Shown here in pieces: positions 10,598 to 50,537 of a stretch of DNA of 64,000 bases (positions are counted from its first letter, which is position 1; every line of letters starts with the position of its first letter). The notes under the pieces are model-generated. The model did not search any database. It saw only the letters and a program-made list of their open reading frames with translations, and was not told the origin of the DNA. The translations under genes and the position numbers were made by a program. This stretch comes from a virus. The DNA is taken from positions 10,199-74,198 of IMG/VR virus record IMGVR_UViG_3300009149_000001; one strand, written 5' to 3'.

Positions 10598-11959
10598 TCA
10601 TAATTTTTGTATATATGATACTGTTAGACTTACAGGGTCATTTGTTGTACTCCCGTGATCATGGCTACCTCCTGTTCCCGTTGTATATGATGCTGAAGCA
10701 CTGGGTGTTGGTGAAGTTAATGCGTGACTGTGTGGTCTCCATGAGCCACCACCTCCACTAGAACCATTTCCACCTGAACCACCAGCAGCAGTACTACCAG
10801 AAGTTGTATGGGTGTGACTACTAGACCCCGTATGTGTGTGAGTTGTAGCTGTATGTGTGTGAGTTGCAGCACCACCTTGTGTGCCTGGGTTTGTACAAGC
10901 ATTAGGTATTGTTCTGATATATCTATCCAATAGATTAGGAGTATTACAATTTCCATCGGCAATTCTAAATCCTGCCGGAACAGAAGAATTAACACCTGTC
11001 CATAAACCAATTAACCCTGGTGAGACTCCAGGATTATGCAAACTAACACTGGTTTTTTTAATAACAGCTAACTCGTGATATTGTGGTAAATTGCAAGAAT
11101 TAGCATGTTGATGTGCACCAGTACTACATGTTAATCCGCCAATAGTGGTACCGCTAACAGCACCAGACCCAGCTCCGTGTGCGTGACCACCGGTGATAGG
11201 CATTGTGGCAGGATTATATCTCCACACACTAGTATTTGATGCGGGTCCAAAACATCCCACACTATGAGAATGGGATGAACCTGTGGCAGTGTGAGTGTGA
11301 TTACCATTAGAACTGTGTTGATGTGTAGCAGCCCCACCGGTAACTTGAGGATTAGTGCATGCATCTGGAACTCCTTTAATAATTTCATTGGATATATAAT
11401 TTGAATTAAGAGAATAAGTAATTGGTATAGCAGAGATGGCTAAATTAGTATAAGCACTAACACCTGTTGGGATATGATTCAATCTCATACTAATTGTAGT
11501 GCTGTTCTTTATGATATGTCTAATTGTAATATTAGATGGTTCAATATTTTGTGTATCGTGAGTGTGTGCACCAGTACTACATGCTGTACTTACTGTGAAT
11601 GTAGTTGATCCAGAAGTTTGATTGTGGGTATGGGCTGTACTCGAAAAGCCACTGAGCCCTGGACAACCTGTAAATGCCCCAGCGGGAGTACTTGATCCAC
11701 CAGTATTAATGGTGTGAGTATGTCCTGGTGTAGGAGATCCAGCAGCGTGAGTATGACCAGCTACTGCAGTAGGTTCACAGTGGGTATTTGCACCAAGACT
11801 AGTACCTGGATTAGTACATAAGTTGGGAATATTTTTTGGATATTTAGCAAACAGACTACTTTCGTCTATAAATTCTCCTGGTAAATCTCCTGCGTTACCA
11901 TCATGTAATAATACTAAAGATGAAGGTACACGAGCTTGTCTAAAACTTCGAGATACTAA
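10598..11959 (-). CDS. His-rich (HxH) tail fibre with three collar-type repeats; frame extends 157 codons upstream of ATG 11488
   Basis: Three repeats of P..CTNP...G..TH followed by HxH runs. The first repeat lies upstream of the first ATG, in the same open frame. Confidence 0.75.
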   Translation of the reverse strand, partial: LVSRSFRQARVPSSLVLLHDGNAGDLPGEFIDESSLFAKYPKNIPNLCTNPGTSLGANTHCEPTAVAGHTHAAGSPTPGHTHTINTGGSSTPAGAFTGCPGLSGFSSTAHTHNQTSGSTTFTVSTACSTGAHTHDTQNIEPSNITIRHIIKNSTTISMRLNHIPTGVSAYTNLAISAIPITYSLNSNYISNEIIKGVPDACTNPQVTGGAATHQHSSNGNHTHTATGSSHSHSVGCFGPASNTSVWRYNPATMPITGGHAHGAGSGAVSGTTIGGLTCSTGAHQHANSCNLPQYHELAVIKKTSVSLHNPGVSPGLIGLWTGVNSSVPAGFRIADGNCNTPNLLDRYIRTIPNACTNPGTQGGAATHTHTATTHTHTGSSSHTHTTSGSTAAGGSGGNGSSGGGGSWRPHSHALTSPTPSASASYTTGTGGSHDHGSTTNDPVSLTVSYIQKL

Positions 11960-12321
11960 TTACAGTCACCACACAAAATAATTACATCATCTTCTATCTT
12001 GGTAACATATGACAGTCTTCCTTTGAGAATACTATTGTAACCAACAATTCTTGGTTTTGTTGTTCTTGAAATTTTATGGGTAGGTTGATCTAGAGTATGA
12101 CCAAAGGCTTGATCACCTGTAGTGCCTATAAAATTACATTTATCACATTTGTATGCAGATACATCTTGTTTAATTTCTTGTTTAACTACTTTAGTTTCAA
12201 ATTTCTTTTTACATTTTTGACATGCTTTAGGTACTACACCACCGCCTATTTGTAAGACATTACCAACTTCGTCTTCCTGTGCATTACCCGATTTAATAAA
12301 TTTCCACTTCATATTCCCCAT
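11956..12321 (-). CDS. Zinc-finger protein
   Basis: CQKC, CDKC...H.....H, CGDC. Confidence 0.6.
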   Translation of the reverse strand: MGNMKWKFIKSGNAQEDEVGNVLQIGGGVVPKACQKCKKKFETKVVKQEIKQDVSAYKCDKCNFIGTTGDQAFGHTLDQPTHKISRTTKPRIVGYNSILKGRLSYVTKIEDDVIILCGDCN

Positions 12322-12863
12322 ACCTCCAACTGTTGCATGGTCGCGGTACCAGAAGTTGTATTTTCTAAAAAGAATTCTATTGTATGAACTGCATTATTAG
12401 ACCATCCTGTTGCATCAATGGTACCTGTTACTTTTACATATGATGTTGAAGCTGTAGATAAATCCAAGTCACCTGAACCTGTAAGATCATGCCCTACACG
12501 GAGGTGTGCTGTGTTTGCTGAAGCCTTTAGCATGGCAACAATTGTAATTGTATTACCTGTATATCCTTCGGCGCTTTTAATAAAATCAATATCTTTAACT
12601 TGAACCGGTGAAGTTGTAGTTCCTGTAACTATTGTAGAATCAGCCCCAATTAATACATTAAGATTTCCTCTCGTATCTGTAGCTCCACCTCCAATTTGAA
12701 CTTGGAGAAATCCAACTGTGCTATTATATGTAATATCGCCAACCTCATTATCTACAGCTGATATTCCTGCAATTTCAGCCTCGGTACCTTTTCTAATTCC
12801 CTTGTTGTTTGCAGATCTTTCTGTAATAGTATCACCGTCAGTCCATTTAAGCAAAGCCATCAT
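12309..12863 (-). CDS. Minor tail protein; C-terminal beta domain shared with 32420..35263
   Basis: GADST..T..TT....VK.IDFIK...TGTID...HT.E.F aligns with the fibre C-terminus. Confidence 0.65.
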   Translation of the reverse strand: MMALLKWTDGDTITERSANNKGIRKGTEAEIAGISAVDNEVGDITYNSTVGFLQVQIGGGATDTRGNLNVLIGADSTIVTGTTTSPVQVKDIDFIKSAEGYTGNTITIVAMLKASANTAHLRVGHDLTGSGDLDLSTASTSYVKVTGTIDATGWSNNAVHTIEFFLENTTSGTATMQQLEVWGI

Positions 12864-13120
12864 ACTTCTACCTCAAATGTTTGACCAGTCATACTCTTGT
12901 TTATTTCTTTCTCTGCGTTTTGAACTAACGGGACAGCCTCATCCTTAAATATTGCAATTATCATATCAATTGTAGTATTTAATTCAAATTGTTGTTGATA
13001 TATACGAGGAGTCTTTAGAAGCCCATTAACAATATCATTATCAGTTGTCCATTTAATTGCAACCCTACGACCTTTTTTATTAATAACGTCTGATTTAAGA
13101 TCTGATAGTATTTTAGTCAT
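12860..13120 (-). CDS. Hypothetical tail-module protein
   Basis: ORF coupled by overlaps on both sides. Confidence 0.5.
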   Translation of the reverse strand: MTKILSDLKSDVINKKGRRVAIKWTTDNDIVNGLLKTPRIYQQQFELNTTIDMIIAIFKDEAVPLVQNAEKEINKSMTGQTFEVEV

Positions 13121-13422
13121 TGTGTTATTTCCTCTAATATTTCAATTTCTTTTGAAGTTGTAAAATCCGAAAAGGACCGTTTTTTTGCATTTCCAAGCCA
13201 ATCTTTTAATATAGGCTCAGGATGCTTTTTTGCTTCATCTAAGATATTATATAGTTCAATATAATGTTTAATTAAATTATAGGGCGTCCAGCCATTAGGA
13301 ATATTAATAACATTGATCATTTTATTATGTTTTAGACAATCTTCAATATGAATCATCTGATCTATAATAGATCGTTGACGCATAAGTATATAATCTAGCC
13401 TATTAAGATGTTCCAATTTCAC
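13117..13422 (-). CDS. Hypothetical protein
   Basis: ORF within the operon. Confidence 0.5.
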   Translation of the reverse strand: MKLEHLNRLDYILMRQRSIIDQMIHIEDCLKHNKMINVINIPNGWTPYNLIKHYIELYNILDEAKKHPEPILKDWLGNAKKRSFSDFTTSKEIEILEEITQ

Positions 13423-14035
13423 TAAGTCCTATGCGTGCAGTTCCTATAAGAAATGGAGATGCTAAGATGGAAACCTTAAGCAATTCACCAAAAGCCCCAC
13501 CATCATCAACGGTTTCACCAGGTAGTGCAGTAGCATCATGATTAATTAATAAGTTAAATGTAATAGTTTGTGAAGCTCCTTGTTCTGTTTTTCTCTTTAA
13601 CCAGAAAGGTACACCTTCTCCCTGTCTTAACATTCCTATTGGAATTCTAACTGTATCCCATGCACCATCATCAGCATTCTCTTCACCAAAAAATGTTACA
13701 CCCGTTGGAGTTACATCTTCAGTTGCAATAGTGGGTGCAATACCAGTAGTTCGACCATCACCTTTACCACTAGGATCAAGTCCAATTGATACTTGAGATA
13801 GCGCTGGATTAGTTGATAATTCTAAAGTAACACCTGTATATGTTGTTGCATCTGGATTATAAATATAAGCAGCCCTATATTCTGTTTTACCAACGAGACC
13901 TTCTGATCTTGAAACATCATCAAATAAATTTTGTGAAGTATTATCAATAACAAGAGTATCTGATCTTTGTCCACCTAATGAACCTTTAGGAGCTGAATTA
14001 AGTTGTCCACCTGCTAAACTAATTCCTATAGTCAA
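13403..14035 (-). CDS. Virion structural (tail) protein
   Basis: SLGG..S...NLFDDVS..E...G.TEYR..YI.N pattern seen in phage tail proteins. Confidence 0.65.
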   Translation of the reverse strand: MTIGISLAGGQLNSAPKGSLGGQRSDTLVIDNTSQNLFDDVSRSEGLVGKTEYRAAYIYNPDATTYTGVTLELSTNPALSQVSIGLDPSGKGDGRTTGIAPTIATEDVTPTGVTFFGEENADDGAWDTVRIPIGMLRQGEGVPFWLKRKTEQGASQTITFNLLINHDATALPGETVDDGGAFGELLKVSILASPFLIGTARIGLSEIGTS

Positions 14036-14133
14036 TGTTGTTCACACCTACCACATATATCACGATTTAAGTTAATAACTCTAACACATCCACAATCACA
14101 TGGGCAAACTTTGGGAAGAGGATAATCGCTCAT
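14032..14133 (-). CDS. 33-aa Cys-rich microprotein
   Basis: MSDYPLPKVCPCDCGCVRVINLNRDICGRCEQH; ATGA and TTGA overlaps fill the gap exactly. Confidence 0.65.
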   Translation of the reverse strand: MSDYPLPKVCPCDCGCVRVINLNRDICGRCEQH

Positions 14134-15743
14134 CTTTTTCTCCTCAAAGCCATACGTTGATTGAATGCAAATATACCTTCATTGGCACGATACTTTACAT
14201 AAGTATCATCATCCCCGACTGCTAGTATTGTTAAAATTCCCCCAACATTTGTATTAGTTGCACCTGATATTACACCAACACACACGACAGCTAGATTAGT
14301 AAAAGACCAAGTGATATTATCTAAAACAGTAGAACTAGTAGCTGTAATCACACTACCAATTGGTCTTTCAACAAAGCCTATGTAACCTAGTGTATCATTT
14401 GCAGTTAAAGTATCATACCAAGCCATCCAATTATCATCTAATAATAAAATTCCAGTATCTACATCTGAATCATTAGTAAATGTAAAAGGATTAACCGTTG
14501 GAGATAGATTGAGTGGATTTCCCCTATTGGTGTCATCAGTTTTAAGTTGATTAAAATCTTGTATCTGGGTTGCTGTAGTTCCTGTAGATAAAGCAACTCT
14601 TTCTTTAACTGTATTAATTCTAAATTCTTTTGATGTTGCAGCAACTCGAACATATGGTGTACCTCGTCTAATATTAATTTCATGTTCTAATATACCATAC
14701 TTTACATTCATTACAACTTGAGAATTATTAAATCTGGTAAATATTATATCGTGTAATGTTGTTGCAAGATCACCTTGAGTTGATTTTGGAATAACCTCCC
14801 CAGTTAAGGCCCAAGCTGTTCCACTCCAACCCCACACTTGCATACCAGGAGTTGTAGGTCTAAACCATAATCTAATAATACCGTTTTCAACTATTCTATC
14901 ACCTGTAAATTCATGATCAGATGAATAGACTTCTTCCCAATTAGTTTCATCTATATCAGATGTTATTATAGTATCAAAGACTTGAACACGACCAATTAAT
15001 CTGGTTGATAAAGCGACATCATAAGTTAAGAATATCTTAGGATAAAAGATCCATATAAAATCAGACTTTACGGTCTTAGTAGTTGTTTGATCTGTTACTA
15101 ATTGTAAGAATACTTTACACTCAGCAATGTTTGCCAAGAGAGATCCTATATAAACCCGTGTCTTGGCTCCCGAAGCGGATTTATCTTTTAAATAGAATTT
15201 AGTAATACCTTCGTCAAGGAAGTCAAGTTCAAAATTGATCTCCGTTGACGCAGATGACATTGCTGTTGTAGATAATACAGTAGCAACGCCCCCCACTATT
15301 TCTCGAAAAATGACTTGTGGATTAGCTGCTCCGATTTCGAAATCAATTTGCAAAGCGTCTAGAGTTGCTAGATCTTGGAATTCATATCTTACCTTTTCAT
15401 CTCCTGATGCAAGTGTTGCATCTTGTAATTCCATATGACCTACAATTTTAAGGCCCGGATAAAAGTACATGAAAGGGTTAAAGGTTGAGGTCTTTGTTAC
15501 TTCAAATGTGTCATTACTAAAGGCAGCTATTTCTAATTTACCTGCTGTTACATTGGCTGAATCTCCTCCAATATCACCTGTACTATTAGAGGCCATCTCA
15601 GCACCAATTGCCGCATTATAATGTGAACCTATTAAAAAGTTAATGATTGGCACACTACCATCTTTAGTTAATCTATTAAATGATTTTGAAAGTGGTGAAA
15701 ATGTACCAGCCCCACTAGGGGGAGAGAGAGAGATATGTGCCAT
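14130..15743 (-). CDS. Minor tail protein
   Basis: 537-aa beta-rich ORF downstream of the tape measure gene. Confidence 0.55.
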   Translation of the reverse strand: MAHISLSPPSGAGTFSPLSKSFNRLTKDGSVPIINFLIGSHYNAAIGAEMASNSTGDIGGDSANVTAGKLEIAAFSNDTFEVTKTSTFNPFMYFYPGLKIVGHMELQDATLASGDEKVRYEFQDLATLDALQIDFEIGAANPQVIFREIVGGVATVLSTTAMSSASTEINFELDFLDEGITKFYLKDKSASGAKTRVYIGSLLANIAECKVFLQLVTDQTTTKTVKSDFIWIFYPKIFLTYDVALSTRLIGRVQVFDTIITSDIDETNWEEVYSSDHEFTGDRIVENGIIRLWFRPTTPGMQVWGWSGTAWALTGEVIPKSTQGDLATTLHDIIFTRFNNSQVVMNVKYGILEHEINIRRGTPYVRVAATSKEFRINTVKERVALSTGTTATQIQDFNQLKTDDTNRGNPLNLSPTVNPFTFTNDSDVDTGILLLDDNWMAWYDTLTANDTLGYIGFVERPIGSVITATSSTVLDNITWSFTNLAVVCVGVISGATNTNVGGILTILAVGDDDTYVKYRANEGIFAFNQRMALRRKR

Positions 15744-16288
15744 TATATACTGAAAATCTTCTCCAATACATTAATAAAACTATCAAAGTCAAATGAATCA
15801 TTGGTACCGTCTGGTATGTCTGTGCCTATACCATCTTCATCAGATGTTGGATCTACTACATCAGAATCAGATATAGCACCTTGATCACCAAATTGTACAA
15901 ATGTTATAGTGTAACTGTGAACTGGTCCTACCCCACCAACAAAACCTGAATCGGTCACTGACTGGGCAGCTACAGCTCCAATCTCGGATTTATTAACTGC
16001 ATATCGTCCGTTATAGAAAGCAAAGTTTGGTTCAGCTACCTCATCAACTGTAATCTGAATAGATGGTTCATCAGCGTTCTTTGTTAGCTCCCATAGAGCA
16101 AATGCTTTAAAAGATGGCCAAATTAATCCTGTAATTTCAAGTTCATATAAATCAGGTCCAGTATCTGTTGGCATTGGAAAGTCAAACAGAATCTGTTTTG
16201 CCTCTTGTTTTCTCATAACACGTCTCTTAATGGATGATGGGGCAATTGGTAATGTTATAGGACCAAAAGACCAAGCACTATCGGGCAT
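15743..16288 (-). CDS. Distal tail/tube-initiator-like protein
   Basis: Directly follows the tape measure gene; G.ITLP.AP N-terminus. Confidence 0.5.
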   Translation of the reverse strand: MPDSAWSFGPITLPIAPSSIKRRVMRKQEAKQILFDFPMPTDTGPDLYELEITGLIWPSFKAFALWELTKNADEPSIQITVDEVAEPNFAFYNGRYAVNKSEIGAVAAQSVTDSGFVGGVGPVHSYTITFVQFGDQGAISDSDVVDPTSDEDGIGTDIPDGTNDSFDFDSFINVLEKIFSI

Positions 16289-16289
16289 T

Positions 16290-19200
16290 TTAGACTACTC
16301 CTGAGGCAAGCAATGTATCCTTATTACCTATTTCTTTATTTAACACCTCGGAGACAGCGGCGGCAATTTGAGCTGCGGTTTCCTCAGATGCTGAGCCTTC
16401 AATTGTAATATTGATGCCTCCCACGTTAACACTCTGGGTTGCTTGAGCATTAGCAAGTGCTGCTAAGTCAATCTTTTCACCAAGGGCTTGGGCTAATAAT
16501 TTATTAACAGTTTGTTGAAGATCACCTATTTCACCAAAGGATGTACTAGTACCTCTGCCTGATATTGAAAAATTACCTTTTCTAGATACCTCTAATGTGG
16601 CTAATCTACGTGCAGCTTCAGTTCCCTCTAATGCAAGTTTAGTCAAGGCTACTGAAACATTACTAGATGCCTCTTGAGAATCAATTATGAAATTAGTTAA
16701 TCGAGCAGTCTCTAATGTTAAGTTAGTAACTTCAGTTTGTTCCAGCTGTTGAGCTGCTGATAACATTTTAGTTCTTAAAGTGTTAAAGTCAACTTGAATA
16801 GTGTTTGCATCTGAAGCACCTTTCTGAATTTTAAAGCTAGTGTGCAAGTCAGTTGTTTTCTTTGTTAAAGCATCAGCTTGACCTAGATATTCATTTGACC
16901 ATTTTATAGTTCTGTCAACCCACACTCCTTTCAATTCTTCTAATCCTTTAACCATCTCATCAATTGTATCCCTTGGAATAATTTCACCTACTCCCTCACC
17001 ATTATCTGGTGCTGGTTGGAAGTTTGTACCATCAACATTAATGCCTGGTGATCCTTCTGGGAATCTAGATTCTATCTCAGGGGCTTCATTAGCTCCTCTT
17101 GCAAGTGCAGTGTTTTCAGAAGCTTGAGATGCACCTTTTAATACACCGGCAACAAGTTGTGCAATTCCTGGTGGTAGTATACTTGTAATAGCATCAATAA
17201 GAGTGTTTCCTAAGTTTTCTGTAACCGCAGTTATAAAGGCCTCTCTAATGGCATCACCAATTGCAGCACCTATAAGAGCTGCTTTAGTTACTATATTAGC
17301 ATTTTGACCTAATTCATCTAATGTTTTACCTGTTAATGCTGTTAAACCATCACCGCCAATAATTAATCCCAGAAATCCAGCTACTAATTCAGTGGCGATC
17401 TTTTCACCAACCTCCATAGCTTTTTCAAGATTACCTGTTACAACAGCTTCCCATAATTCACCCCAATCAGTTGCGGCAAATGCATCTTGCATATCTAAGA
17501 TCCAATTAGATGCTGCCTCACCTAAAGCTAATCCCATAGCAACACCTGCGGCTTCCATACTAGCTGCAAATGCTTGGAACACTACAAGCATTGCATCAAG
17601 TCCCTCTAGATCTTCATCTTCAATTTTCTGTATAACTTGATCCCATTTTTTACTAAATTCATCCATTGCACCAACAGAGTCTGCCCACATTATAACAAGG
17701 ATTGCTGCTACAGCTGCAAGGGCTACAATCAATCCAGGTATATTGCCAGCGATTCCAGCAATTGCAAGACCTAAGGCAAGCATACCACCTGAGACTGCAA
17801 TCTCAGCTGCTTGATCAGAATTATCAATCTCATCTGTGAATAGTACAAAGAGATTCTTTGCGGCAAACACAGCTATAACAATTCCTGCTATAACGGCAAT
17901 AATAGTTAGTAATGTAAATCTTAATCCTTTAGCTGCAACTTGTGTTCCAACCATAGCTCCAGTTGCACCACTGTTACCAGCACCTAGTACTAGGGTTAAT
18001 TTAAGAAGCAATGATGTAAATGCTGCAACTACTTTACCAACGGATGCAATGATTAAAGTGGCAACAAGTAATCCTATAAAGCCAATGAAGAGTTTAATAA
18101 GCCCTGCCATAACACTCTTGTGTTCTCTGAAAAAGTCAGCTAATTTTTTAACTTGTTTTGCTAAAGTCTTTACAATAGGTAATAACTCTTTGCCTAAAAC
18201 ATCACCCAATTCCAAGGCCATTTCTTGCAAGCCACCATCTCTAACTAGGGCTTGAACAGCTTCAGATACTCCTGCAATTGCTGGTGATAAGCCTTGTGTG
18301 AATATAGTCTTTAATGCATTTAATGAATTAGTCATCTTCTTCATATTGGCTTGGGCAGTGTTACCTAAGATGCCTTCAAGGGCCGATGAATCACCTGCTC
18401 TAGCTGCTGCTACAGCCATATCAATTTCTTCCTCAGTTACTTGTGTTAATTTTGCTAATGCATCAGCTGCTCGAATCTCAAGCCCCATCTGGTCTTCTAA
18501 GAATAATTTAAATGCATCAGATGAAGTACCAGCCTTATCTAAAGCTTTCTTAGTGTCTTTAAGGAAATCAATAAATGGTACTAAGTTACCATTATTATCA
18601 AGTAGTTTAATACCCATATCTTCCAAGACTGGGTTAAGTTTTAATGCATTATTTTTAAGTCCGAAGAACAACTGTCTGAGATTTCGACCTGCTGCACCTG
18701 CCCCTTGACCAAGTCTATTACCTAGGAGACCAAGCAATGCCCCTGTTTCTTCTACATCTAATCCAAAGTCTCGTGCTTGGGAGGATGCAAATCCAAAGGA
18801 TCTAGAAAGTTCATCCAGTGTAATTGCTGAGGACTGGTTGACATTGATCATTACAGATGTTACACGGGCTGCCTCAGATAGACTAAGTCCAAAGTTGTTC
18901 ATAGTCTTAATTAAGGTCTTTGCTGATTCAGCTGAATCAACTTGCTCAATTGTCATTAATCTAAGTACTTGTTTTGTAACACCTATTAATTTATTACTCT
19001 TTTCTAATTCTGTACCAGTAAGATCTGTTGCCTTACCAATCTCTCGCATGGCATCTGATACTTCAGTGATACTAAAGATAGTACCACCTGCACCCATATC
19101 AAATATAGCATCATTAAGATGTGATACAGCCATTGCTGACTCCTCTGTTTGACCTGAAAAGTCAATACCAGATTGTGCAATAGCCCTGGTCATTGAATCT

Positions 19201-19496: not shown

Positions 19497-20142
19497 CAGT
19501 CTAGGTACTTGGGATTAGTTTTGTTTTTCATTCTATCTCTCCGTGGGTTGGCCTTCGCCTTGTTTGGTGGGTTCTTCATCTCATGCTCTTGTTTCTTACT
19601 TACTGCACTAATGATCGTCAAGGATAATAAAACTCCCTCTACATCGTCAAGTTCGTAACCGAGTAATTGATGCGGCATTGCTGATTGCACTGCCATGCAA
19701 AGTGAACCTATACTTTGACCGATTGTTGAGTCTGCAATTTTTTTCGGTTTGCGTCCCCAAGACTATCAAGACCTGTTATCTCGACAATTTTGTTAAAGAT
19801 TTCTACAACTGAATTGAATGGAATATCATCAACTGATAATTCATCCTCTCCTACTGCATCACCAATAACCACTGTTGGAGAAACTATACACTTTGGTATA
19901 ATTGCTTTCATCATTGGATATATTGATTTCTGTAGTTTGGCTGCTTGATCTTGGGACATATTTTCACCGTCTATTACATCTGACTCTGAAGGTAAGCCTT
20001 GGAATTTGTCAAAATTTTCTAATAAAAGAGTGAATGGAATGGGTTTTAAAACCCATTCGTACTCTTCATCAGAATCCTTTGTTACAAATTTAACTTGGTT
20101 TTTACCCTTAAGTTTTTGTAGTGTTGGATTCATATGTTTCAC
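19496..20142 (-). CDS. Tail assembly chaperone pair G (19708..20142) and GT, via -1 frameshift
   Basis: Slippery A AAA AAA at 19738-19744. The -1 frame is open into ORF 19496..19696. Lies between tail tube and tape measure. Confidence 0.8.
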
Positions 20143-21141: not shown

Positions 21142-21585
21142 CTATCTTCTAACGTCTTTTTCACATCTGATTATAATCCGTATGGGAATAGCTAGCATGT
21201 TCTTGCTTGACAACTCTCCGTCTCCTGGGGCAATGGATACCAAAGCTTTGAAGACGAGGTCATTGATTGTAGATAGGTTAAATTTGTCATATACCTTCTC
21301 GGCCACAGTGAGGGCATTGGTAAATGCTGTCTGTTGACCTTCAGCATTAGCCCAGTATAATAAGTCACATATTACATTAAATTCCATAGTCACACTATGT
21401 TGAGTTAAACCACCAGCATTCTCTGCTGGACCTGCTTTAACTTCTACTTCAAATCTACCAGGTACTGGTAAGTGTCTACCTTGCCAAAGAAACACTCTAG
21501 TTCCTTCAGCGTCATCAGCTAAGTCTGGTAATGTTTTCAATTGCGTTACAATCTCAGCCATAAGGCCTGTGTAAGTTCCGACTAT
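21142..21585 (-). CDS. Tail terminator-like protein (ATA start proposed; ATG at 21561)
   Basis: Position between HK97 gp10-like gene and tail tube. Confidence 0.55.
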   Translation of the reverse strand: MVGTYTGLMAEIVTQLKTLPDLADDAEGTRVFLWQGRHLPVPGRFEVEVKAGPAENAGGLTQHSVTMEFNVICDLLYWANAEGQQTAFTNALTVAEKVYDKFNLSTINDLVFKALVSIAPGDGELSSKNMLAIPIRIIIRCEKDVRR

Positions 21586-22040: not shown

Positions 22041-22431
22041 ATTGCTCAGAGGTTGTCATTGCGGATATTGATGGATCAATACCGATTAATGTTTCTTCAC
22101 TTACATTGCCCATGTCTAAATCGACTGGTTCAAGTGATATTCTGTTTATGAAAAACTCTGCGACTTTACGAAAATGCTGAATCTTAATTTTATCGGCAAT
22201 ACTGATATTACCTAATTCTTGGGAGATACCTTCTGTGTATGCACCATATGATAACCAAGCTGCCATAGCGGCAATTGCATCATCTACTGATGCTGCGTCA
22301 GCAAGTGGATCTGCTACATCATCAATTACTCTTTTTGATCTATCGATGTTGGCTTGGAAGGTTGCTGTAGTTAAACCTGCTGATGCACTAATATCTAGTA
22401 GTGCCTTTACATCTGCGACGAGAACTGTCAT
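22030..22431 (-). CDS. Head-tail adaptor
   Basis: Helical 133 aa downstream of the MCP; DVKALL N-terminus. Confidence 0.6.
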   Translation of the reverse strand: MTVLVADVKALLDISASAGLTTATFQANIDRSKRVIDDVADPLADAASVDDAIAAMAAWLSYGAYTEGISQELGNISIADKIKIQHFRKVAEFFINRISLEPVDLDMGNVSEETLIGIDPSISAMTTSEQFDQ

Positions 22432-22438
22432 TATTTCT

Positions 22439-22513
22439 CTATCTCATCCCGTAATTCTTGATCTGGTGAGGGAAGCAAGTAATAGCACAATCTGTGCAAT
22501 AGACAAGCTTTAT
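22439..22513 (-). CDS. 24-aa CxxC...CxxH microprotein with ATA start
   Basis: (M)KLVYCTDCAITCFPHQIKNYGMR fills the intergenic gap; ATAA overlap with the upstream stop. Confidence 0.4.
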   Translation of the reverse strand: MKLVYCTDCAITCFPHQIKNYGMR

Positions 22514-22728
22514 TTTCCTTTTGTGTAACCATAATGCTGGGCCTCCTTTGATATAGCTAATCCTGTAGTGAATATAGATGCCACTAATGCTATGACAAGA
22601 GTTTGTTCAAATCCTAAACCTACATCATAAATTGATTCAGCAACCCCACCACCAAGTAGTGGTCCGAAAAAGGAAACACCAAAGTTTCCAAGGACTCTTG
22701 CTGCTGATTTCTTAGCACTAAATGCCAT
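22510..22728 (-). CDS. 2-TM membrane protein
   Basis: Two hydrophobic segments. Confidence 0.55.
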   Translation of the reverse strand: MAFSAKKSAARVLGNFGVSFFGPLLGGGVAESIYDVGLGFEQTLVIALVASIFTTGLAISKEAQHYGYTKGK

Positions 22729-41576: not shown

Positions 41577-41876
41577 ATGAAGAGCTTTCCTAGTAAGTAC
41601 AAAGGCAAGTGCAATACTTGCAATGGACCTATTCCAGCGGGCACCATGATCAACTGGTCCCGTGAATTAGGGGCATTCCATGTCAATTGTGAAGTCATTA
41701 TTGATGGCAAATCACAGCAAACATTGGCAGATGAATGGGATCGTGAACACGCCAACGAACCAACTTGTTTAGATCGTTTCGAGGCAATGAGAGTCGATCC
41801 AGTGTACAAAGATGTACCAGAAGATGCAATCTATACCTATGCATCCCAGGATACGAGGAGGAATCCATACCGATGA
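41577..41876 (+). CDS. Zinc-ribbon protein (KY.GKC..C...I..G..I.W...H..C)
   Basis: Recognisable phage zinc motif; GGAGG upstream. Confidence 0.6.
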   Translation: MKSFPSKYKGKCNTCNGPIPAGTMINWSRELGAFHVNCEVIIDGKSQQTLADEWDREHANEPTCLDRFEAMRVDPVYKDVPEDAIYTYASQDTRRNPYR

Positions 41877-42166
41877 CTCGTATCATGTGTGGTATTCATG
41901 GGGAGGTTGAGTCAACTACATGGGAAGGGGAACAAGTATGTCCTTGGCATCAAAGAGTGTCACAGTCCGAAGAAGGACCTGTCTTCATGTACGAAGAGTT
42001 CAATCAGGATGGGGAAGAATGGTAGCACCACCCCTTAACATAGGAGAGAGAGAGGAGGACGGAGTCGTCCTTCAATGACCTTCAAACTTTTTTCTTATCA
42101 TTTCATGCGAGTGTTCGAAGGAACATTCATTTTCACTAATGACGAGTTAGAGGAGGTGGGACTAGG

Positions 42167-42418
42167 ATAGACGAACCATCACGAGTCGAATATAGTGGAT
42201 ATGGCTACGACCACCACGGTATAGCAGTTACAGTAACACTTGAGGACATTGGCAAATATGCTGAAGAAGTCAAGAAAGAACTAAAGGAGACACATCCTGA
42301 GGGGTACACTGTAGCTACCATGATAGCTCAAACCGGGCTTTTCAAGTTACAAGATAACTTACCGTCGTGGTTAGACATAGACACGTCGGACTGTATGGAA
42401 ACATACAGTGTCGACTGA
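42167..42418 (+). CDS. 83-aa protein with ATA start (missed by the ORF track)
   Basis: Open frame (M)DEPSRVEYSGYGYDHHG...; GGAGGTG 8 nt upstream; ATAG overlap with the upstream stop. Confidence 0.65.
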   Translation: MDEPSRVEYSGYGYDHHGIAVTVTLEDIGKYAEEVKKELKETHPEGYTVATMIAQTGLFKLQDNLPSWLDIDTSDCMETYSVD

Positions 42419-42468
42419 CGGCCTACTTTATATACATAGGGCAGGTAAATCTTGCCTAAATTTCAGTA

Positions 42469-42765
42469 ATGGAAGACACAGAATTACGAGACGCATACTG
42501 CGACCTACTAAAGGCGATGTGTCACTTCAAAATCCAGGACAACAACTTAGTCATTACAATTGACTATAGTGATCCAGGGTTTGCGGAGTGGGACTATCTC
42601 AAACTCACAGACAAGGCCTACAAGGAGACCATGAAAATGCTTTCAGAAGAAGGCAAGAAGATCTCTGATTGGGTCAGTGAGAACTTTAGAGTCAAGTATG
42701 TCGTACGCAAACCATGTAACTGTCATGTACATCATGACGAAGAATGTGACTCACTATCAATGTGA
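42469..42765 (+). CDS. Hypothetical protein
   Basis: TATA TTTATATA at ~42427. Confidence 0.55.
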   Translation: MEDTELRDAYCDLLKAMCHFKIQDNNLVITIDYSDPGFAEWDYLKLTDKAYKETMKMLSEEGKKISDWVSENFRVKYVVRKPCNCHVHHDEECDSLSM

Positions 42766-43254
42766 GCTACACCTTTTTTTCCTTGTCAAATATAACAGAT
42801 CATACAAGAGAGTGTCTTTGTCAAGATTGTGATAATGCTAAGGCTACGTTCTCATACGAACAGAGTCATGATGCAGATCCAATACTAATGGCAGTAGCAC
42901 TGTTGTTAGATACACTTGATGTCAACAGCTGTACAGTTGTGGGCTATCGAGGCAATCATTGGACTATCGAGGATAGCAGAGGATGACTAGTAGTACATTA
43001 GTCAAACCAGTCTTCCCCGAAATTCCAGACAAAGACGCAAAAGAATTACTTGTCGAACTCTATGTCACTAGTGGCAGAAAGAGAGGAGCAAGACACACAG
43101 CTGACGGTACCAACTGTCCTAAGCATAGGAGAAACTGGTATCTCAAATCCAAAGGAATGCCTACGGGCTTCTAATTTCTTTTTTTCCTAAGTGTGGCAGT
43201 AGATAAATATTTAAATATAATAAAAAGAAATAATAGTATCAATAAATAATACTT

Positions 43255-43407
43255 ATGAGCGAAGCACAAACGTCATTATTCGTTAAGTTAAGTTCAGATA
43301 GGCATGTAAAACTAAAGACCTATACAGCTCTAAACGGTCAATCGATGGTACAAGTCATCGAGGACTGGATAGACACATTGAACTTTAACTTTAAGAAAAA
43401 TGACTGA
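43255..43407 (+). CDS. Ribbon-helix-helix (ParG-like) protein
   Basis: MSEAQTSLFVKLSSDRHVKLKTYTALNGQSMVQVIEDWIDTL. Confidence 0.7.
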   Translation: MSEAQTSLFVKLSSDRHVKLKTYTALNGQSMVQVIEDWIDTLNFNFKKND

Positions 43408-43792
43408 AATAATAAGGGCTAATGCGGAATATTCATTAGGTCCAGGAGATTACAGCAGGTGTGAGTATTGTAAAAACAATGCTAAACACACTCATGGCAG
43501 TGATCCTCAACCTATCAATATGAAACCATTAAGCAGATACAAAATGATCAGTGAGCTTAAGAAGTTTTGTGATGAAGGCGAACAAGCCTTCTTCAAAAAA
43601 TCAGAAGAGTTCGAAGGTCAGGAATCTGGAACAGGTATATGGACTGGCGGTGAAGGAAGTCCATCCAAAGATGAGATGGGCTTGTGGAACTACTGGGGAG
43701 AAAACCATCCAGAGATTGATCAATTCCTCGAGACGAGGGGTTGGTACCAAGAATGGTATGATGCAGGAACAGTTATGCTGTATCCCATCTAA
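43400..43792 (+). CDS. Hypothetical phage protein
   Basis: C-terminal FL..RGWY.EWYDAGT. Confidence 0.55.
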   Translation: MTEIIRANAEYSLGPGDYSRCEYCKNNAKHTHGSDPQPINMKPLSRYKMISELKKFCDEGEQAFFKKSEEFEGQESGTGIWTGGEGSPSKDEMGLWNYWGENHPEIDQFLETRGWYQEWYDAGTVMLYPI

Positions 43793-44435
43793 CCTATTTT
43801 TTCTTGCAAACATATATAGACAGTACGGGTAATGATACAGGTATCATTATCCACAAACCAGAGCCTACTATGTATACAATGGTGAATGGATATCGCATCA
43901 AAAATTGGTGTGGATTCGGTTCAAAGTGTCCAGATAGGTGTCTCTTTCTCTCACACCCAGAGGTGTTGGAGGAAATATTCGATTCAGAGCGTAACAACCT
44001 CTAATCACTTTTTTACTTATGGAAACTAAACACGCACAAGCTATCAGGGAGACACAATGGTGTCTTCAAGAGGCATATAAGGAAGCAATACGAGTCAGTG
44101 GTATAACAGATTGGTCTGATCACGAACAAGAAGACAAGGTGTTATTAAATAGACACGTTGAAGTCTTGCAAGTAGAAATTGCAAAGATGCTTCAAACAGC
44201 ACTTCACAGTTAACATAGTTCCCAAACTTGAGCAAGTTCTACGACGACAGTCGTTACTAAGAACCTCTACGATCGAGTCGGAACGGTTAAACAACGTATT
44301 AGGAACAAATCCGGTATAAACTACAAGACACTATCCCTGTATGTAATACAGATAAGGACAAAGTTATGCCTAAACTTCCGAAGAAGTTCCACTCCAGAGT
44401 TAAGCGATGAAGGAGTAGGGCCGGAGATTACAGTA

Positions 44436-44738
44436 ATGAATATATCAGACATTATAGACGAGTGCTATAAGTGTGAACCATATCGCAAGCTTGAGAGAGC
44501 TTGTCTAAATGGTCCTGTGAAATACGAATATTCGTGTTCAGAGGAAACACAAGAAGCACTCGAAGAAGCTGATCCAACAGGTAGAGCGTTGGAGGCAAAG
44601 TGTACAAACTTAGCAGAAGTACAGGCAGCAGATGCAATCAGTGAAGAAGCATTGCACAAGCATGTTCTCGTTTGTACAGAGCATGGATGTACTCTATTAA
44701 GAGAGTATAGACACGAGCTAAAAGTTCCGGGTTATTAA
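44436..44738 (+). CDS. Hypothetical Cys-rich protein
   Basis: ORF track. Confidence 0.5.
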   Translation: MNISDIIDECYKCEPYRKLERACLNGPVKYEYSCSEETQEALEEADPTGRALEAKCTNLAEVQAADAISEEALHKHVLVCTEHGCTLLREYRHELKVPGY

Positions 44739-44790
44739 CCCACATTTTTGATGAACGTATCAACGATTCATAACGGAGGATACTAACGGT

Positions 44791-45174
44791 ATGAAAGTAC
44801 CTGCAGCATTCTTCGAAGTTAGCCCTCACTGGGCTAAAGCAATTAGTGAAGCAAAGACAGTAAAAGAACTATCTGGCAATAAAGATAGTGGCGGATCAGT
44901 CCGAGAATTTGGCGATCGCTCTATTCAAAATGCACAGAGCTGTATAGTCGGCGAAGCACACCACAATACATTCAAGTGGGGTAGCTGCCAAGAATGCGAT
45001 GCATTCAGCAGTCGATTCGGTGACATTCTCACAGGAGAATTAGACACCAAAGGCAATAGAAAACAACAGTTAGTTCAAAATATCACTGACTTCACATCTC
45101 ATTGGAGAGAGGAGCACAATCCTTTAGTTCACTTAGACATTGAAACTGAAGATGAGCTTCCAGTCATACCTTGA
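44791..45174 (+). CDS. Hypothetical zinc-binding protein
   Basis: CIVGEAH..C..C..HW..EH. Confidence 0.55.
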   Translation: MKVPAAFFEVSPHWAKAISEAKTVKELSGNKDSGGSVREFGDRSIQNAQSCIVGEAHHNTFKWGSCQECDAFSSRFGDILTGELDTKGNRKQQLVQNITDFTSHWREEHNPLVHLDIETEDELPVIP

Positions 45175-45449
45175 ATAGTGTGACATCCAAACTTTTTATT
45201 AAAAGTTTCGAGACATTGCTTAAAGGTTATAACGACTCATACGGTCGAATGACAGATGACAACATGACAAAACTTGTTCCAACCGTCAAGAAAGACGGTG
45301 ACAACTATAACATATGGAATACAGATGATCGAGTAATGGGTCACGTGTTAATCGAATTAGTCATAGCTGCAACAAAACATATGTGCGGTGGCTCATACTA
45401 TGTCGATTATAACCAAACAGCCAAGAGATTGGAAATCCATATTTTTTAA

Positions 45450-46075
45450 GGCCCAGAGTACTAACACTACCTGGAATGTTTTAAAGAAAGACACAGCGAC
45501 CTCGACTTGATTTCGAGCGAGAGTTCCTGGGGAGACAGAGTAAGCTAGTCAAATGATTAGTCCTACCCCTTCCGAATATACAATGAGCGATCTAGTTCAG
45601 CCAAAAACATACCTAACTCTGATCATAAACGGATAATGCCGCATGAACAGCAGTACACACTAGTGGGATAAGTTGGTTGCTTCCCATACAGGCAGAATGA
45701 CCTCGTTTGAGTATAATAGAGAATGGTCAAGTGAGTTAAGGGCATCTATGCCACCGTCGATTAGGACCTTAAACCGACGATATTAAATAGATAGCGTGCA
45801 TACTCTTACAAAAAGGCGCGTACGGCGAATCAGTAAATACTTTTGTATGGATGTAATAGATTCAGTCAGGAGGTTGAAGGCACATCACCAACAACCTTAG
45901 GCTGGGTCGATGATTTATAGTCATTAAGATGTAGCAGTTGCAACTGTGCGAACTGAGATAACTTCTTTCGTGGCAGGTGTATTAAAGCAGAGGCCTTGTG
46001 GAGCGGGGTATGAGCAACAACAACTCATAATCCGTGTCGAAACATGGTTGCTGGGGAGATCACCTTTCACCACTT
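45450..46075. ncRNA. Candidate large (~600 nt) structured ncRNA
   Basis: No ORF of 60 aa or more across 45450-46033 in an otherwise gene-dense genome; at least 9 stems; raised GC. Confidence 0.6.
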
Positions 46076-46145
46076 CTATTAAACACCTTTAACCTATTAT
46101 GGACATTAGATAAATCTTTATATAATATAAAAATTAATAATACTT

Positions 46146-46439
46146 ATGAAAGAAAAATCCGAGAGCTCGGTAATAGCTTCTTTCAAAGAACTAGAGGGTC
46201 AAACACCTGTTGTGTCACAATCAGCAGGCCAATTGATTCTATCTATTGCAAAGAAAGCACCTAAAACAGCTTTCAACCAAAAGATGTTCAGAGAAAAAAT
46301 GCTAGAGATTGAAGGAGCTGCAACAAGCAATCCTGCAATTAATGGAGCCTTAAGAAAATTAGCCGATGGTGGTCTTATCGAAAGAGAAGTCCAAGGGAAG
46401 CATGTCTTTTACAGACATATTAAAGCAACAACAAAATAG
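46146..46439 (+). CDS. Winged-helix protein, paralog D
   Basis: SFKELEGQ, P.TAF.Q, SNP.IN..L..L...G.I.R; leaderless TATA promoter. Confidence 0.75.
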   Translation: MKEKSESSVIASFKELEGQTPVVSQSAGQLILSIAKKAPKTAFNQKMFREKMLEIEGAATSNPAINGALRKLADGGLIEREVQGKHVFYRHIKATTK

Positions 46440-46486
46440 TCAAAGTCAAGTAAAACTTAAACTTTGAATTATTTTTTTTTTTAATT

Positions 46487-46741
46487 ATGAGCGTTAAAAA
46501 TAATATTAGCATATTGGGTGTTGGATCCATTATTATTGGTCTTATATCATGGTCATTTAGTCTATGGGTAGAAGGTTTCTACTTCATACTAATTGGTCTT
46601 GCTATGGCAGTAATCCAGATGTTCTGGGGTACTTCAGGCAAATTCCAAGAAGTATTGGATAAGCACACAGGTGCATATGATCATGAACTTAGTAACAGTC
46701 CAAAGGACAAACCAACAAAGCCACAGAGGAGACAGTGGTAG
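46487..46741 (+). CDS. 2-TM membrane protein
   Basis: Two hydrophobic helices; overlaps the HerA-like gene. Confidence 0.6.
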   Translation: MSVKNNISILGVGSIIIGLISWSFSLWVEGFYFILIGLAMAVIQMFWGTSGKFQEVLDKHTGAYDHELSNSPKDKPTKPQRRQW

Positions 46742-47709
46742 GTTTTCTTAATATAGGTACAAGGTTACCTGAAGAGTATATTACAAGACGATGTGCCATA
46801 CTGGCAAAAGTCGATTCTGGTAAAACATATACTGCAGGTAAGATTCAAGAGCAGATGGCCAAGAAAGGTTTACCCTTTGTGGTCATAGATCCAATGGGAG
46901 CTCATTGGGGTATCAGGACTAAATATCCTGTGTTAATCCTAGGTGGTGCTCATGGAGATCTTGAACTTCAGCCTGGGGATGGAAGGTACATAGCCGGTTT
47001 GGTTGTGGCCCAAAATCTCACTTGCATCCTTGATATCAATGAGTTTTCAAAGGACAATCAGCAAAGATTTGCAGCTGACTTTGGAGACGAACTTTTCCTA
47101 TTGCACAAGAAGACATCTAGTCCAAGACATCTATTCTGGGAGGAAGCCGATATATTCGCACCCCAGAGAGGAACTGCTATGTCATTGCAGGTCTTGGATA
47201 CCTTAGTTAGACGGGGACGGCAATTCGGGCTGGGCAGTACACTTATCACCCAGCGTCCAGCCGTTCTCAATAAAGACGTATTAACACAAGCAGACATTTA
47301 CTTATTCCTAAACATTATCGAGGAGGGAGCAATCAAGGTAGTAAAAGATCTACTGTCAGTTGTATCCAAAGAAGAGCGTAAGATGTACATAGACAGTATG
47401 AAAGCCTTCAAAAAAGGCGAGATGTTGTTATATAGTCCAGCTTGGTTGCAGAAGATTAAGATCTTCCAAGGAGCAAAGAAGGAGACATACCACGCAGGAG
47501 CAACACCGGTATATGGGGAGACTCAAAAGATTCCCACTCTATTGAAATACGAAACAATGCATATTAAAAATGCGTTGAATAAATTAGCAGGTAATGAGGA
47601 AGAGTGTAACAGCAGGCCAATCATTGAGGAGAAAGACCTTAAAGCCTTGAAACCGGTTATATTCATTTCAGCAGCTATAATAGCAGTAACAATGGCGATG
47701 ATACTATGA
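46735..47709 (+). CDS. HerA/FtsK-family ATPase (DUF87) with C-terminal TM helix
   Basis: AKVDSGKT, VVIDPMG, Walker B WEEAD.FAP, GRQFGLG...ITQRPA. Confidence 0.85.
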   Translation: MVGFLNIGTRLPEEYITRRCAILAKVDSGKTYTAGKIQEQMAKKGLPFVVIDPMGAHWGIRTKYPVLILGGAHGDLELQPGDGRYIAGLVVAQNLTCILDINEFSKDNQQRFAADFGDELFLLHKKTSSPRHLFWEEADIFAPQRGTAMSLQVLDTLVRRGRQFGLGSTLITQRPAVLNKDVLTQADIYLFLNIIEEGAIKVVKDLLSVVSKEERKMYIDSMKAFKKGEMLLYSPAWLQKIKIFQGAKKETYHAGATPVYGETQKIPTLLKYETMHIKNALNKLAGNEEECNSRPIIEEKDLKALKPVIFISAAIIAVTMAMIL

Positions 47710-48763
47710 GAATTAATGAACTAGAAGAAGCAAGACTTCGTGAGCTATACGAACAAGCCAACGATAAAGATGATGATCCATCCTGGCAACTAATTCGTAG
47801 CTACTACGATACATTAGGTAAGAAGTATGGCTTTGATCCAAGACGTGTTATGATTAATACAAAGGGTGAGGTTACAAAGAGGTCTTACGAGACAGTGTAT
47901 GTAGTACATGACTCAGCCAAGTCAGTACCAATAGCAGTATATAGAACTAAACAACAAGCTATGGAACATAGCATGAATGAGCCAACACTTCATTGGGATG
48001 AGGTTGGTCTTTACTAACTTTAACTTGGAAAATAAAAAATTATTTGAATTGGTCGTCGTAAGACGAGTAAGAGATGGCAAACTTAAATGTGAGTTTGAAA
48101 CAGAGTTAACCTGTGATGATAATGTTGATGTATTCAATGTTATCGAGCAGCTTAACAATTCTATCACGAGATGCTTCAATGTATTACGTGAAAAGCCAAT
48201 AACAGATTTACAGTAAACGATTACAAGGCAGGATCCAGGTCTCAGACCTAACGTAGGATATACGGAAAACCCAGTGCCGAAAATATCATAAGTTTACAAA
48301 GGAGTCGGAAGAAAGCATGCATTGATAGAGTTCCACACGAGCCCCTTAGTGCGTATCCTTTCGACCCTTTATTCCAGTTAACAGACGGTAGTATTAATTA
48401 CACTACCAGTTGACAGTAGATCTGACTAGTCATGATGACGCATTTAGCTATGTAAGCCGGTACATCCCACTACTCAGACTACTATATTACAATGAACTAT
48501 TTAATACAATGCGCTTATGGTGACACAGAATGTGATCCAGAGGGCAATGAACCAAAACAGATGTGTGATGAACACAGCAGGGATTGGCATGACGCAAGAG
48601 CGGAGTCGTACAATGACCTTGATTAGAGGCCTAAAATGTTAGCCATAGGTAACGGCGAGAAGTGTCCTTGGTGTGATTTAATTGTCACTGAGGATACAGA
48701 TGTTACTACACACATGACGGAGAATCATAGGACAGAGTTTATGAAGGAGGTCTTCGGAAACTA

Positions 48764-49054
48764 ATGTTTCAAGATCCTTATCTCCCTCCTGGGTGTACAA
48801 CATCAATGTGTGAACCAGATGATGATCCATGTGCAAGATGTGGACATTTTTACAGTGCACACTATGATCCAGATAGCGGTGAGGTAATAGCATTACCTTG
48901 TCAGCGAGATCATATAGGTTATGATGCTGAAGGTCCTGAGCTTAACTCAGAGGGCGAAGTAGTACATGCATGTGATGCTGTTATTAATAATCGAACTAAA
49001 GAACAATGCGAATGCGAAGGTTACTTAGAGGGAGAGTATTGTCCTGATGAGTAA
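48764..49054 (+). CDS. Cys-rich protein
   Basis: LPPGC, C..CGH...H, C.C..Y. Confidence 0.5.
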   Translation: MFQDPYLPPGCTTSMCEPDDDPCARCGHFYSAHYDPDSGEVIALPCQRDHIGYDAEGPELNSEGEVVHACDAVINNRTKEQCECEGYLEGEYCPDE

Positions 49055-49617
49055 TTGTGCATGTGGCGCGAATCATGTGGATGAGGGGTTTAAATTATGA
49101 ACGAATATAAAAATCATATCTTTCTAATTGAGAGTAAGACCGAGTCAGTGGTTGAGGTAACCTTCAAACAAGCTTTAATCGGACTTGAGTGGTACAATCG
49201 GGATATAGATATTACTGATAGTTTAGCACTTGGTGCTGAGTATTTCACTCGATGTTTTCCAGAGCTATGTATGGATACAGAAGATACACATAGTGAGGTA
49301 ACAGGTATCATAGGACCAGTAAATCTTGTTGAGTGATCAAGAAATATTCACACATCTACGTCATGATATTAGACTTAGAGAAAAAAATCTAATTTGTTTA
49401 GATTGTAAAATAATATTATCACGCTGGGACGAGTGAGAGAGAGACACATACTAATGAACGAATCAAATGAATGTCAAGCAACTGATTGTCAGAATATAGG
49501 ACACCGAGTGAAGGCTGTAATAGCCTTTGATGACAAACCTGATGAGATACATACAATATGGTATTGTCAGATGCATCAATCCTTAACTGCAGCTCGTAAA
49601 GGGTTTAAAAATTAGAC

Positions 49618-49803
49618 TTGACCGATTTTACAGAAAAAGAAATAGAGGTCTTCGAGTTCCTAGACAATCTTAGGGAATCCGGAGTTACGAATATGTTTGG
49701 TGCAGGATCATACATTAAGGAATCATTCCCTGATGTAAATTCAACCAAATATCTGTCCAAATGGATGGAAACATTCGAAGAAAGATACCCAAATGGCGAT
49801 TAG
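49618..49803 (+). CDS. Conserved small phage protein (LRESG.TNMFG motif)
   Basis: FLDNLRESGVTNMFGA. Confidence 0.6.
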   Translation: MTDFTEKEIEVFEFLDNLRESGVTNMFGAGSYIKESFPDVNSTKYLSKWMETFEERYPNGD

Positions 49804-50300
49804 ATACATAACTATATCTAATCCCTAAACCTTTTTTTCTAATAAATTCAATATATTATCATGATAGGTATTAAAGAATCAATTCACAGCGCATTAATTA
49901 CTTTGGTACTTAACAGAGAACAAGGCAAGAATTGCTTTGCACAGTTTCAATGTGAGTATTGTATGAACAAATGTACTATACCCCGAGAGGGAGAGAGTAA
50001 GTCTATATTAGGTTGTTGTCGATGTAGTGAAACAAACTATTTGACCGAGTACGAAGTGATAATAACATGAGATTAAACAATGACAATTGTTACATATATT
50101 GTAACAAGAAAACCATGCCCGGTAGATTCTATATGCAAGTCTACTTAGGGGAAGGGGTTTCGAATACTACTGAAGCATGGAAAGCGATACAATTAATAAT
50201 ACAGAACCAGAAGTAGAGTGGACAGAAACTAAACATATGATGTTTTGTGAAAGTCAAATCAACTTAGCAGGCCGGTGTACCGGATGTAGGTGTAAGTGTC

Positions 50301-50537
50301 ATCGCTCCTAGATGTAGAGGTATATGTCACCGTACACAGGTGGGATTTAAAATGTATTCACATGCCAAGTTTTGTTCTAAATGTAAATGGTGGAGACCAA
50401 GGGAGAACACCTTCTGTGAGTGTTGCACTCAAATATTAAGAAGCAGACCGCGATCATATAATAATGGAACGAATATAACTTATGAAATCAAAAGAATCGA
50501 AAACAGCGAAAAAGGATTTGTCACTCCCCACAGGTGA
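50301..50537 (+). CDS. Thaumarchaeal-type Cys-rich small protein (CxGIC...CxxC...CxCC...LRxxP); ATC start proposed
   Basis: The CRGIC motif lies upstream of the first canonical start (GTG 50340); in-frame stop at 50265. Confidence 0.6.
   Translation: MAPRCRGICHRTQVGFKMYSHAKFCSKCKWWRPRENTFCECCTQILRSRPRSYNNGTNITYEIKRIENSEKGFVTPHR

Follow-up and report, generated by a model that had tools for sequence, protein, structure and literature searches.

A tail-fibre gene with TTA at its family's start-codon position in a siphovirus-like metagenomic phage

How does a gene begin when the codon at its conserved start position is neither a canonical nor a near-cognate start codon? This question is raised by a tail-fibre gene on the minus strand of a 64,000-nucleotide stretch of viral DNA (the window), which covers bases 10199-74198 of the 74,198-bp IMG/VR record IMGVR_UViG_3300009149_000001. 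The record carries 98-bp direct terminal repeats. The window has a GC content of ~37%, with a siphovirus-like late module that includes the large terminase (TerL), the portal and a 1068-aa tape measure on its minus strand, and numerous small early genes on its plus strand. The fibre frame opens at a TTA codon that overlaps the stop codon of the gene upstream, and the initial annotation took this as one of six sites pointing to a general tolerance of NUA and AUH codons in termination-reinitiation. We find that among these six only the fibre site is a real anomaly. For that site we put forward, at about even confidence, a private start-codon substitution, confined to a single gene in a single genome, by which a gene intact in every other respect would have become hypomorphic or null.

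The fibre reading frame and its N-terminus

The full-length fibre frame (10598..11959, minus strand) comprises 453 codons and a TGA stop, encodes three internal HxH repeats and a collar-like segment, and has homologs covering residues 1-453. At its 5' end the minus strand reads TGA-CTG-TAA-TTA-GTA. The frame is closed by TAA (11962-60) and TGA (11968-66), so that the in-frame stretch TGA-CTG-TAA (11960..11968) lies directly 5' of the TTA (11957..11959), and the zinc-finger-like gene upstream ends in a TAG (11956..11958) that has two bases in common with the TTA. TTA differs from ATG at positions 1 and 3, and UUA is therefore not a near-cognate start. From codon 0 to codon +7 relative to the TTA there is no canonical or one-mismatch start codon, and codon -1 is the TAA. 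The first ATG, GTG or TTG in the frame is codon 158 (ATG 11488, at 11486..11488), which has no Shine-Dalgarno (SD) element in front of it and is the start chosen by gene callers, giving a 296-aa product. The nearest near-cognate start is an in-frame ATA at codon 31 (11867..11869), with AGGAG 5 nt upstream.

The 157-codon leader that precedes ATG 11488 exceeds every other in the window by a wide margin, those ranking after it on the coding strand having 68 and 59 codons. A run of this length without ATG, GTG or TTG has a chance probability of ~0.3% at the genome's frequency of these codons (3.5%) and ~2% at that of the fibre itself (2.4%). The first 157 codons encode a repeat of the fibre protein (BLASTP against the rest of the protein, E = 5e-6 and 6e-5). 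Read in this way from the sequence, the upstream 157 codons are coding, and the frame, its stops and the BLASTP repeat confirm the description of TTA-G at 11959 in the initial annotation as opening 157 extra codons, including a whole repeat, with a TAA just before it. Its expectation that gene callers would truncate the fibre also proved correct: the only product in JGI/IMG, Logan and ENA is the 296-aa truncation (P0002), identical in all three and on two contigs and found there with the same 118-aa upstream protein, and the 453-aa form is absent from 5.8 billion database proteins. The fibre gene also contains an exact 19-nt direct repeat whose copies, 453 nt apart (11112-11130 and 11565-11583), encode a Cys-Ser-Thr-Gly-Ala-His motif in repeats 1 and 2; this hints at a recent duplication or gene conversion between the fibre repeats.

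Hundreds of fibre relatives were recovered by a word-indexed search and a full HMMER scan. Some ~60-80 of them, 430-485 aa in length, are colinear with the fibre over residues 1-453, and the best full-length relatives match this range with E = 1e-74 to 1e-40. The fibre resembles tail fibres that have a collar-like domain (PF07484) and His-x-His repeats, in that the family profile matches the PDB tail-fibre chains 9nxk and 9qgo (E = 8e-9 and 3e-4, respectively) and PF07484 is present in some homologs. It differs from collar-domain fibres in that the window fibre itself has no Pfam match and is at most 40% identical to any relative. On the basis of these alignments, it is an ordinary member of a large, stand-alone HxH-repeat family of ~445-455 aa with an N-terminal S-R-S-x-R...P motif.

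The position of the N-terminus was tested by aligning residues 1-120 of 79 full-length relatives with MAFFT. All 79 start between -5 and +7 residues from the TTA, and 60 do so within ±1. Many of them open with M-V-S-R-S-[LFI]-R, and the window fibre reads (L)VSRSFR, identical at residues 2-7. The first residue is a literal L in three relatives and a literal V in another three, from which it follows that TTG/CTG and GTG starts occur in the family. Judged by this alignment, the true N-terminus of the fibre is at 11959 or within one or two codons of it. The presence of canonical starts at the equivalent position in orthologs, suggested at the outset as a check, is thus borne out: the 79 relatives begin with M, V or L there, and TTG stands at this position in the syntenic contig L014 described below. 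The invariant residues of the family (P12, P51, G56, H60, H69, H71, H80 and P141) are all kept in the window fibre, and the leader shows no decay; the substitution is therefore recent, or the region is still translated.

The same alignment bears on whether translation could begin at the in-frame ATA 11869 instead, producing a 423-aa fibre that lacks the first 30 residues. ATA is a recognised near-cognate start (bioRxiv 10.1101/063800), and the AGGAG before it is at a usable spacing. The 30 residues that would be skipped, however, hold the most conserved N-terminal motif of the family, and with 11 near-cognate codons in the leader and an SD background of 7.5%, one such pair would arise by chance about half the time. 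We consider initiation at this codon very unlikely. An invertible tail-fibre cassette or shufflon was also considered and rejected, as only one inverted repeat was found (a 17-nt pair at 82%), which lies away from the junction, and in the relatives the gene is complete and includes a Met of its own.

A second 296-aa protein, P0200, is encoded on a 5,554-nt NCBI contig; it is 34% identical to the fibre and starts at the Met homologous to the internal ATG 11488. P0200 may represent either a further fibre that was cut short because it has no canonical start or a form that naturally has two repeats.

The junction with the zinc-finger gene

The gene upstream of the fibre (11956..12312, minus strand) encodes a zinc-finger-like protein of 118 aa, the database form of which is P0124. 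It starts at ATG 12312 with GGAGGT 9 nt upstream, shares an ATGA overlap with its own upstream neighbour, and ends Cys-Asn-TAG. The junction with the fibre is the fourth in a chain, the three preceding ones being ATGA overlaps at 13120, 12863 and 12312. A GGTGA SD-like piece (11966..11970, minus strand) lies 6 nt before the TTA, within the Cys-Gly-Asp-Cys codons of the zinc-finger gene; pieces of this kind have a background rate of 4-7%, and precede 20% of called genes. Coupling of genes by ATGA and TTGA overlaps had been proposed for this genome, and we find the same: a rough gene set of the window contains ~20 junctions with a 4-nt overlap of the ATGA/TTGA/GTGA type.

The ends of the zinc-finger proteins give a view of the same junction in other phages. 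Fifteen homologs (42-85% identity) were found, all of which end 0-4 residues after the same Cys-Asn. In the eight closer ones the residue that follows Cys-Asn is Gly, Asp, Val or Ala, each specified by a GNN codon, which is what an embedded A-ATG-G start would impose. In the closest relatives, the fibre is thus likely to start at an embedded A-ATG-G, with the ATG lying within the Asn-Gly codons, as far as can be read from protein sequences. The IMG/VR contig L014 (46% identity) is syntenic with the window, encoding a fibre-like protein, the zinc finger, the HxH fibre and, last in this order, a 2OG-Fe(II) oxygenase. The L014 fibre gene overlaps the end of the zinc-finger gene and begins either at TTG or, three to four codons before that, at GTG. 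The TTG has GGTGG 5 nt upstream and is the codon homologous to the TTA of the window (M-P-S-R-S-V-R vs L-V-S-R-S-F-R). The four genes form a conserved module (9804-12863 on the minus strand of the window, and L014:6364-10473) in which the oxygenase (Pfam PF13640, E = 2e-18) adjoins the fibre in both phages, suggesting that the oxygenase modifies the fibre.

At the DNA level, megablast and tblastn searches against phage records gave no useful match to the window, and genome scans for close DNA relatives gave no matches. TerL is at most 25% identical to that of any cultured phage. Scans of IMG/VR returned just the distant syntenic L014 and two TerL fragments, and a metagenome scan returned one relative, L006, which is cut at the N-terminus.

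Several other explanations were tried and rejected. An alternative genetic code or stop reassignment is contradicted by the use of all three stops as terminators (TAA/TGA/TAG = 48/39/23 for called genes 60 aa or longer), and the fibre frame is closed 5' by both TGA and TAA, which also disposes of readthrough. A phage-encoded special or suppressor tRNA was rejected, there being no tRNA genes anywhere in the 74-kb record, the window included, as was a known RNA element, there being no Rfam match within the window.

The TTA could also have arisen in sequencing or assembly, or be a minority variant that became fixed in the consensus, with TTG or ATG as the true codon. The metagenome assemblies may all stem from one sample, and TTG is a single transition away. 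On the other hand, the same 296-aa call and 118-aa upstream protein recur across the three databases on two contigs, a TTG would eliminate the upstream gene's stop, and the quality of the consensus appears good because the long genes (1068, 947 and 723 aa) are uninterrupted under table 11. We regard an error as a distinctly unlikely source of the TTA.

A further possibility is that the zinc finger is fused to the fibre by programmed -1 frameshifting on the sense codon immediately before the UAG, and that a 21-aa open reading frame (ORF) is fused likewise to an 83-aa one at 42167, a site taken up below. The two junctions share their frame relation and have an SD-like element 6-8 nt upstream. 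There is, however, no slippery X-XXY-YYZ heptamer around 11962-11956 or 42161-42170, P-site re-pairing would be poor (AAU to UAA), the stops in the fibre frame leave a single codon for the shift, and the proteins of the fibre family stand alone and have Met here. Such a frameshift is highly improbable. A zinc-finger/fibre fusion by frameshift or bypass was rejected, with neither a slippery nor a matching landing site present and the relatives standing alone.

The origin and consequences of the TTA codon

If the TTA is real and lies where the family starts, it may be either a start that has been selected or one that has been damaged. In the first case, UUA would be a genuine start at which a ribosome that terminates on the overlapping UAG, held by pairing of the GGUGA with the anti-SD, reinitiates, and the low efficiency of this step would set a low copy number of the fibre. 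In keeping with this, the frame is intact with its invariant residues kept, an SD piece stands at 6 nt, the 4-nt overlap is as in the three ATGA junctions just upstream, and three sources imply one and the same sequence. In bacteria and archaea, termination-reinitiation between overlapping genes is, moreover, established (PMC6728339). However, UUA has two mismatches to the initiator anticodon and appears neither in NCBI table 11 nor in the coupling literature consulted, which describes canonical starts only (PMC6728339, PMC12548453). All 79 relatives are called with M, V or L first, that is, with canonical-type starts, and a second verified case in this genome is lacking. If a UUA restart did operate here, P0200 would be another instance of it. 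We consider a selected UUA start unlikely.

Measured in E. coli, initiation at codons that lie outside the near-cognate set reaches ~0.01-1% of that at AUG (bioRxiv 10.1101/063800). Because non-cognate initiation is this weak and the coupling literature consulted is canonical, we rank the private start-codon substitution first and the selected UUA restart second, and we infer a lesion in the fibre gene rather than a designed start. TTG, which serves as the start at the homologous codon of L014, is one step away, and the remaining parts of a coupled junction are still in place, namely the GGTGA at 6 nt, the 4-nt overlap with the stop, and the location behind three successive ATGA junctions. As to the amount of fibre protein made from the TTA allele, we infer one of two outcomes. 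Full-length fibre may be rare, being made by ribosomes that are SD-held or arrive from the upstream gene and initiate on the non-cognate codon; alternatively, there may be no full-length fibre, and at most the 296-aa product from ATG 11488.

Several observations weigh against a private substitution. A crippled, conserved fibre gene would not be expected as the dominant genotype in a natural sample, the 157 codons of the leader are without any decay, and the SD piece has been kept and is well placed (though the Cys-Gly-Asp-Cys codons in the gene upstream also impose it). The mutational path is also not simple, because a one-step TTG would abolish the upstream TAG. An A-to-G change at 11957 restores TTG but turns this TAG into TGG, so that with a TTG ancestor the zinc-finger protein would gain a tail of 15 residues, and such a tail is found in 0/15 homologs. 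The absence of the tail from the 15 homologs argues against a TGG-to-TAG ancestor, and the other mutational routes from ATG to TTA need two events. Finally, P0200, the 296-aa call from a distant relative that begins at this same internal Met, could mean that the phenomenon is a recurrent one.

The remaining sites and the stop-overlap geometry

The other five sites were the basis for the claim that reinitiation tolerating NUA and AUH codons is recurrent in this genome. The NTA-R geometry that several of them share is automatic, since an NTA codon in the -1 frame comes with any TAA or TAG stop. Behind the 80 TAA/TAG stops that end called genes, the -1 frame stays open for a median of 13 codons, and the other (control) frame for 12.5-13. 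After TGA stops, the corresponding NTG-A codons open a median of 48.5 codons, because those are real starts. With a trivial geometry, a -1 frame no more open than the control, and better canonical starts at four of the six sites, the claim of a recurrent mechanism falls away.

Two of these four lie on the minus strand. At 21585 and 22513 the ATA-G and ATA-A are present as reported, but canonical ATG alternatives exist for both. The gene at 21142..21561 has an ATG at 21561, 8 codons after ATA 21585, and neither codon has an SD; no homolog of gene 21142-21585 was found in three related records. ATA-A 22513 opens 24 codons only, and the gap that this reading would fill is occupied, in another frame, by an uncalled 33-aa ORF (22431..22532, minus strand), which has AGGAGG 9 nt upstream of its ATG (22532) and meets the following gene in a TAATG junction. 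This ORF is below the length of the ORF listings, and it overlaps the 3' end of a 72-aa gene.

The other two are on the plus strand. ATC 50301 had been considered necessary to include a Cys motif; the codon exists, but a Cys-rich small protein (50352..50537) can start at ATG 50352, with AGGTG 9 nt upstream, which makes the ATC unnecessary. The protein from this ATG reads Cys-x2-Cys ... Cys-x-Cys-Cys, and the upstream Cys pair is not needed. The stretch at 50301 is also overlapped by a 44-aa ORF, and the 50268-50537 ORF has no homologs and no significant Pfam match. The surrounding region (50067-50540, plus strand) contains three short Cys-rich ORFs that overlap by 40 and ~11-40 nt. ATT 2903, regarded as a likely start, likewise exists as a codon, but the gene (2831..3205, plus strand) has a canonical in-frame ATG at 2831, 24 codons before the ATT and with GTGAT 8 nt upstream. 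ATA 42167, ATC 50301 and ATT 2903 are each one mismatch from AUG and so belong to the near-cognate class, as candidate starts only.

Of the five, only the site at 42167 merits retention as a candidate. Here an 83-codon ORF (42167..42418, plus strand) opens at ATA, which overlaps a TAG at 42168-70, and has AGGAGGTG 8 nt upstream. No coding gap of the early region is larger than the one in which it sits (42079-42468). Its codon-usage score of 0.23 is gene-like against a median of ~0.16 for small early genes, in a measure that tells genes from non-genes only weakly. The 83-aa product is an ORFan with no homolog in our searches, the best Pfam match for it and the 50268-50537 ORF taken together being Herpes_IE68 at E = 0.098, below the family cut-off, and its single-sequence AlphaFold model (pLDDT 55) is uninformative. 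The TAG that overlaps the ATA ends a 21-codon ORF (42105..42170, plus strand), which starts at ATG 42105 in a T-rich upstream context.

Both ORFs could belong to a single gene. The 83-codon ORF would then be the 3' part of a ~105-codon gene from ATG 42105, interrupted by a one-base indel, through mutation or error, in the GGG run at 42158-60. First genes of units here typically show the T-rich context that precedes ATG 42105, the overlap between the two frames is the very 25-nt stretch in which the GGG run lies, one extra base in that run would join them, and the codon usage of the 83-codon frame is gene-like. Set against this are the strong SD-type motif 8 nt before the ATA and the acceptance of ATA in table 11, and there is no homolog to decide between the two readings. 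We hold the disrupted-gene explanation tentatively, at somewhat less than an even chance. The ORF and the upstream AGGAGGTG reported for this site thus stand, and ATA is a plausible start, with a frameshift explaining the site equally well.

Some general features of initiation in the window may be recorded here. SD usage is low, with ~20% of called genes having a piece of at least 5 nt at a distance of 3-12 nt (background 7.5%), and T-rich tracts stand directly before the ATG in many first genes of units. A 68-codon open leader before ATG 44436 (44232-44435, plus strand) has a codon-usage score of -0.05, which is non-coding-like, and it is therefore probably an untranslated region.

Comparison with known systems and meaning

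A damaged tail-fibre gene has a precedent in lambda PaPa, a viable phage in which the tail-fibre gene stf is disabled by a frameshift. A similar case would be the window fibre, a conserved gene in which a minor lesion would block normal full-length expression while the frame is otherwise intact. It differs in that its proposed lesion is at the start codon and is not a frameshift, and in that the genotype is an environmental consensus and not a laboratory strain. Natural non-AUG starts are also known, such as the AUU at which infC starts. Those known are near-cognate (AUU, AUA, AUC and CUG), unlike the UUA of the fibre, which with its two mismatches belongs to the 0.01-1% class. Provided that the 83-codon ORF is a gene, ATA 42167 would be of the near-cognate kind. 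The fibre is also comparable with the non-canonical initiation measured for all 64 codons in E. coli (Hecht et al., bioRxiv 10.1101/063800), in that its first codon is not AUG, GUG or UUG and an SD stands before it. With its 4-nt overlap, an SD inside the upstream ORF and a chain of ATGA junctions, the fibre junction resembles in sequence the ATGA/TGATG termination-reinitiation pairs of Huber et al. (2019, Nat Commun, PMC6728339); it is unlike these pairs in that the downstream codon is TTA and not ATG, GTG or TTG.

For the fibre family, the immediate consequence is that a gene-caller error, the 296-aa product, has been inherited by every database copy of this fibre. With start checks guided by homology, its first repeat would be regained, along with the conserved N-terminus, probably the part by which the fibre is attached to the virion. 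A genome-wide tolerance of NUA and AUH codons in restarts would have been notable, and it dissolves on inspection. What is left is a single gene, intact and conserved, that lacks a usable start codon in an environmental consensus. If the TTA is not confirmed in reads and in close relatives, it would be an ordinary start-loss allele; if it is confirmed in both, the fibre gene would offer a rare natural test of SD anchoring and termination relaxing the choice of start codon.

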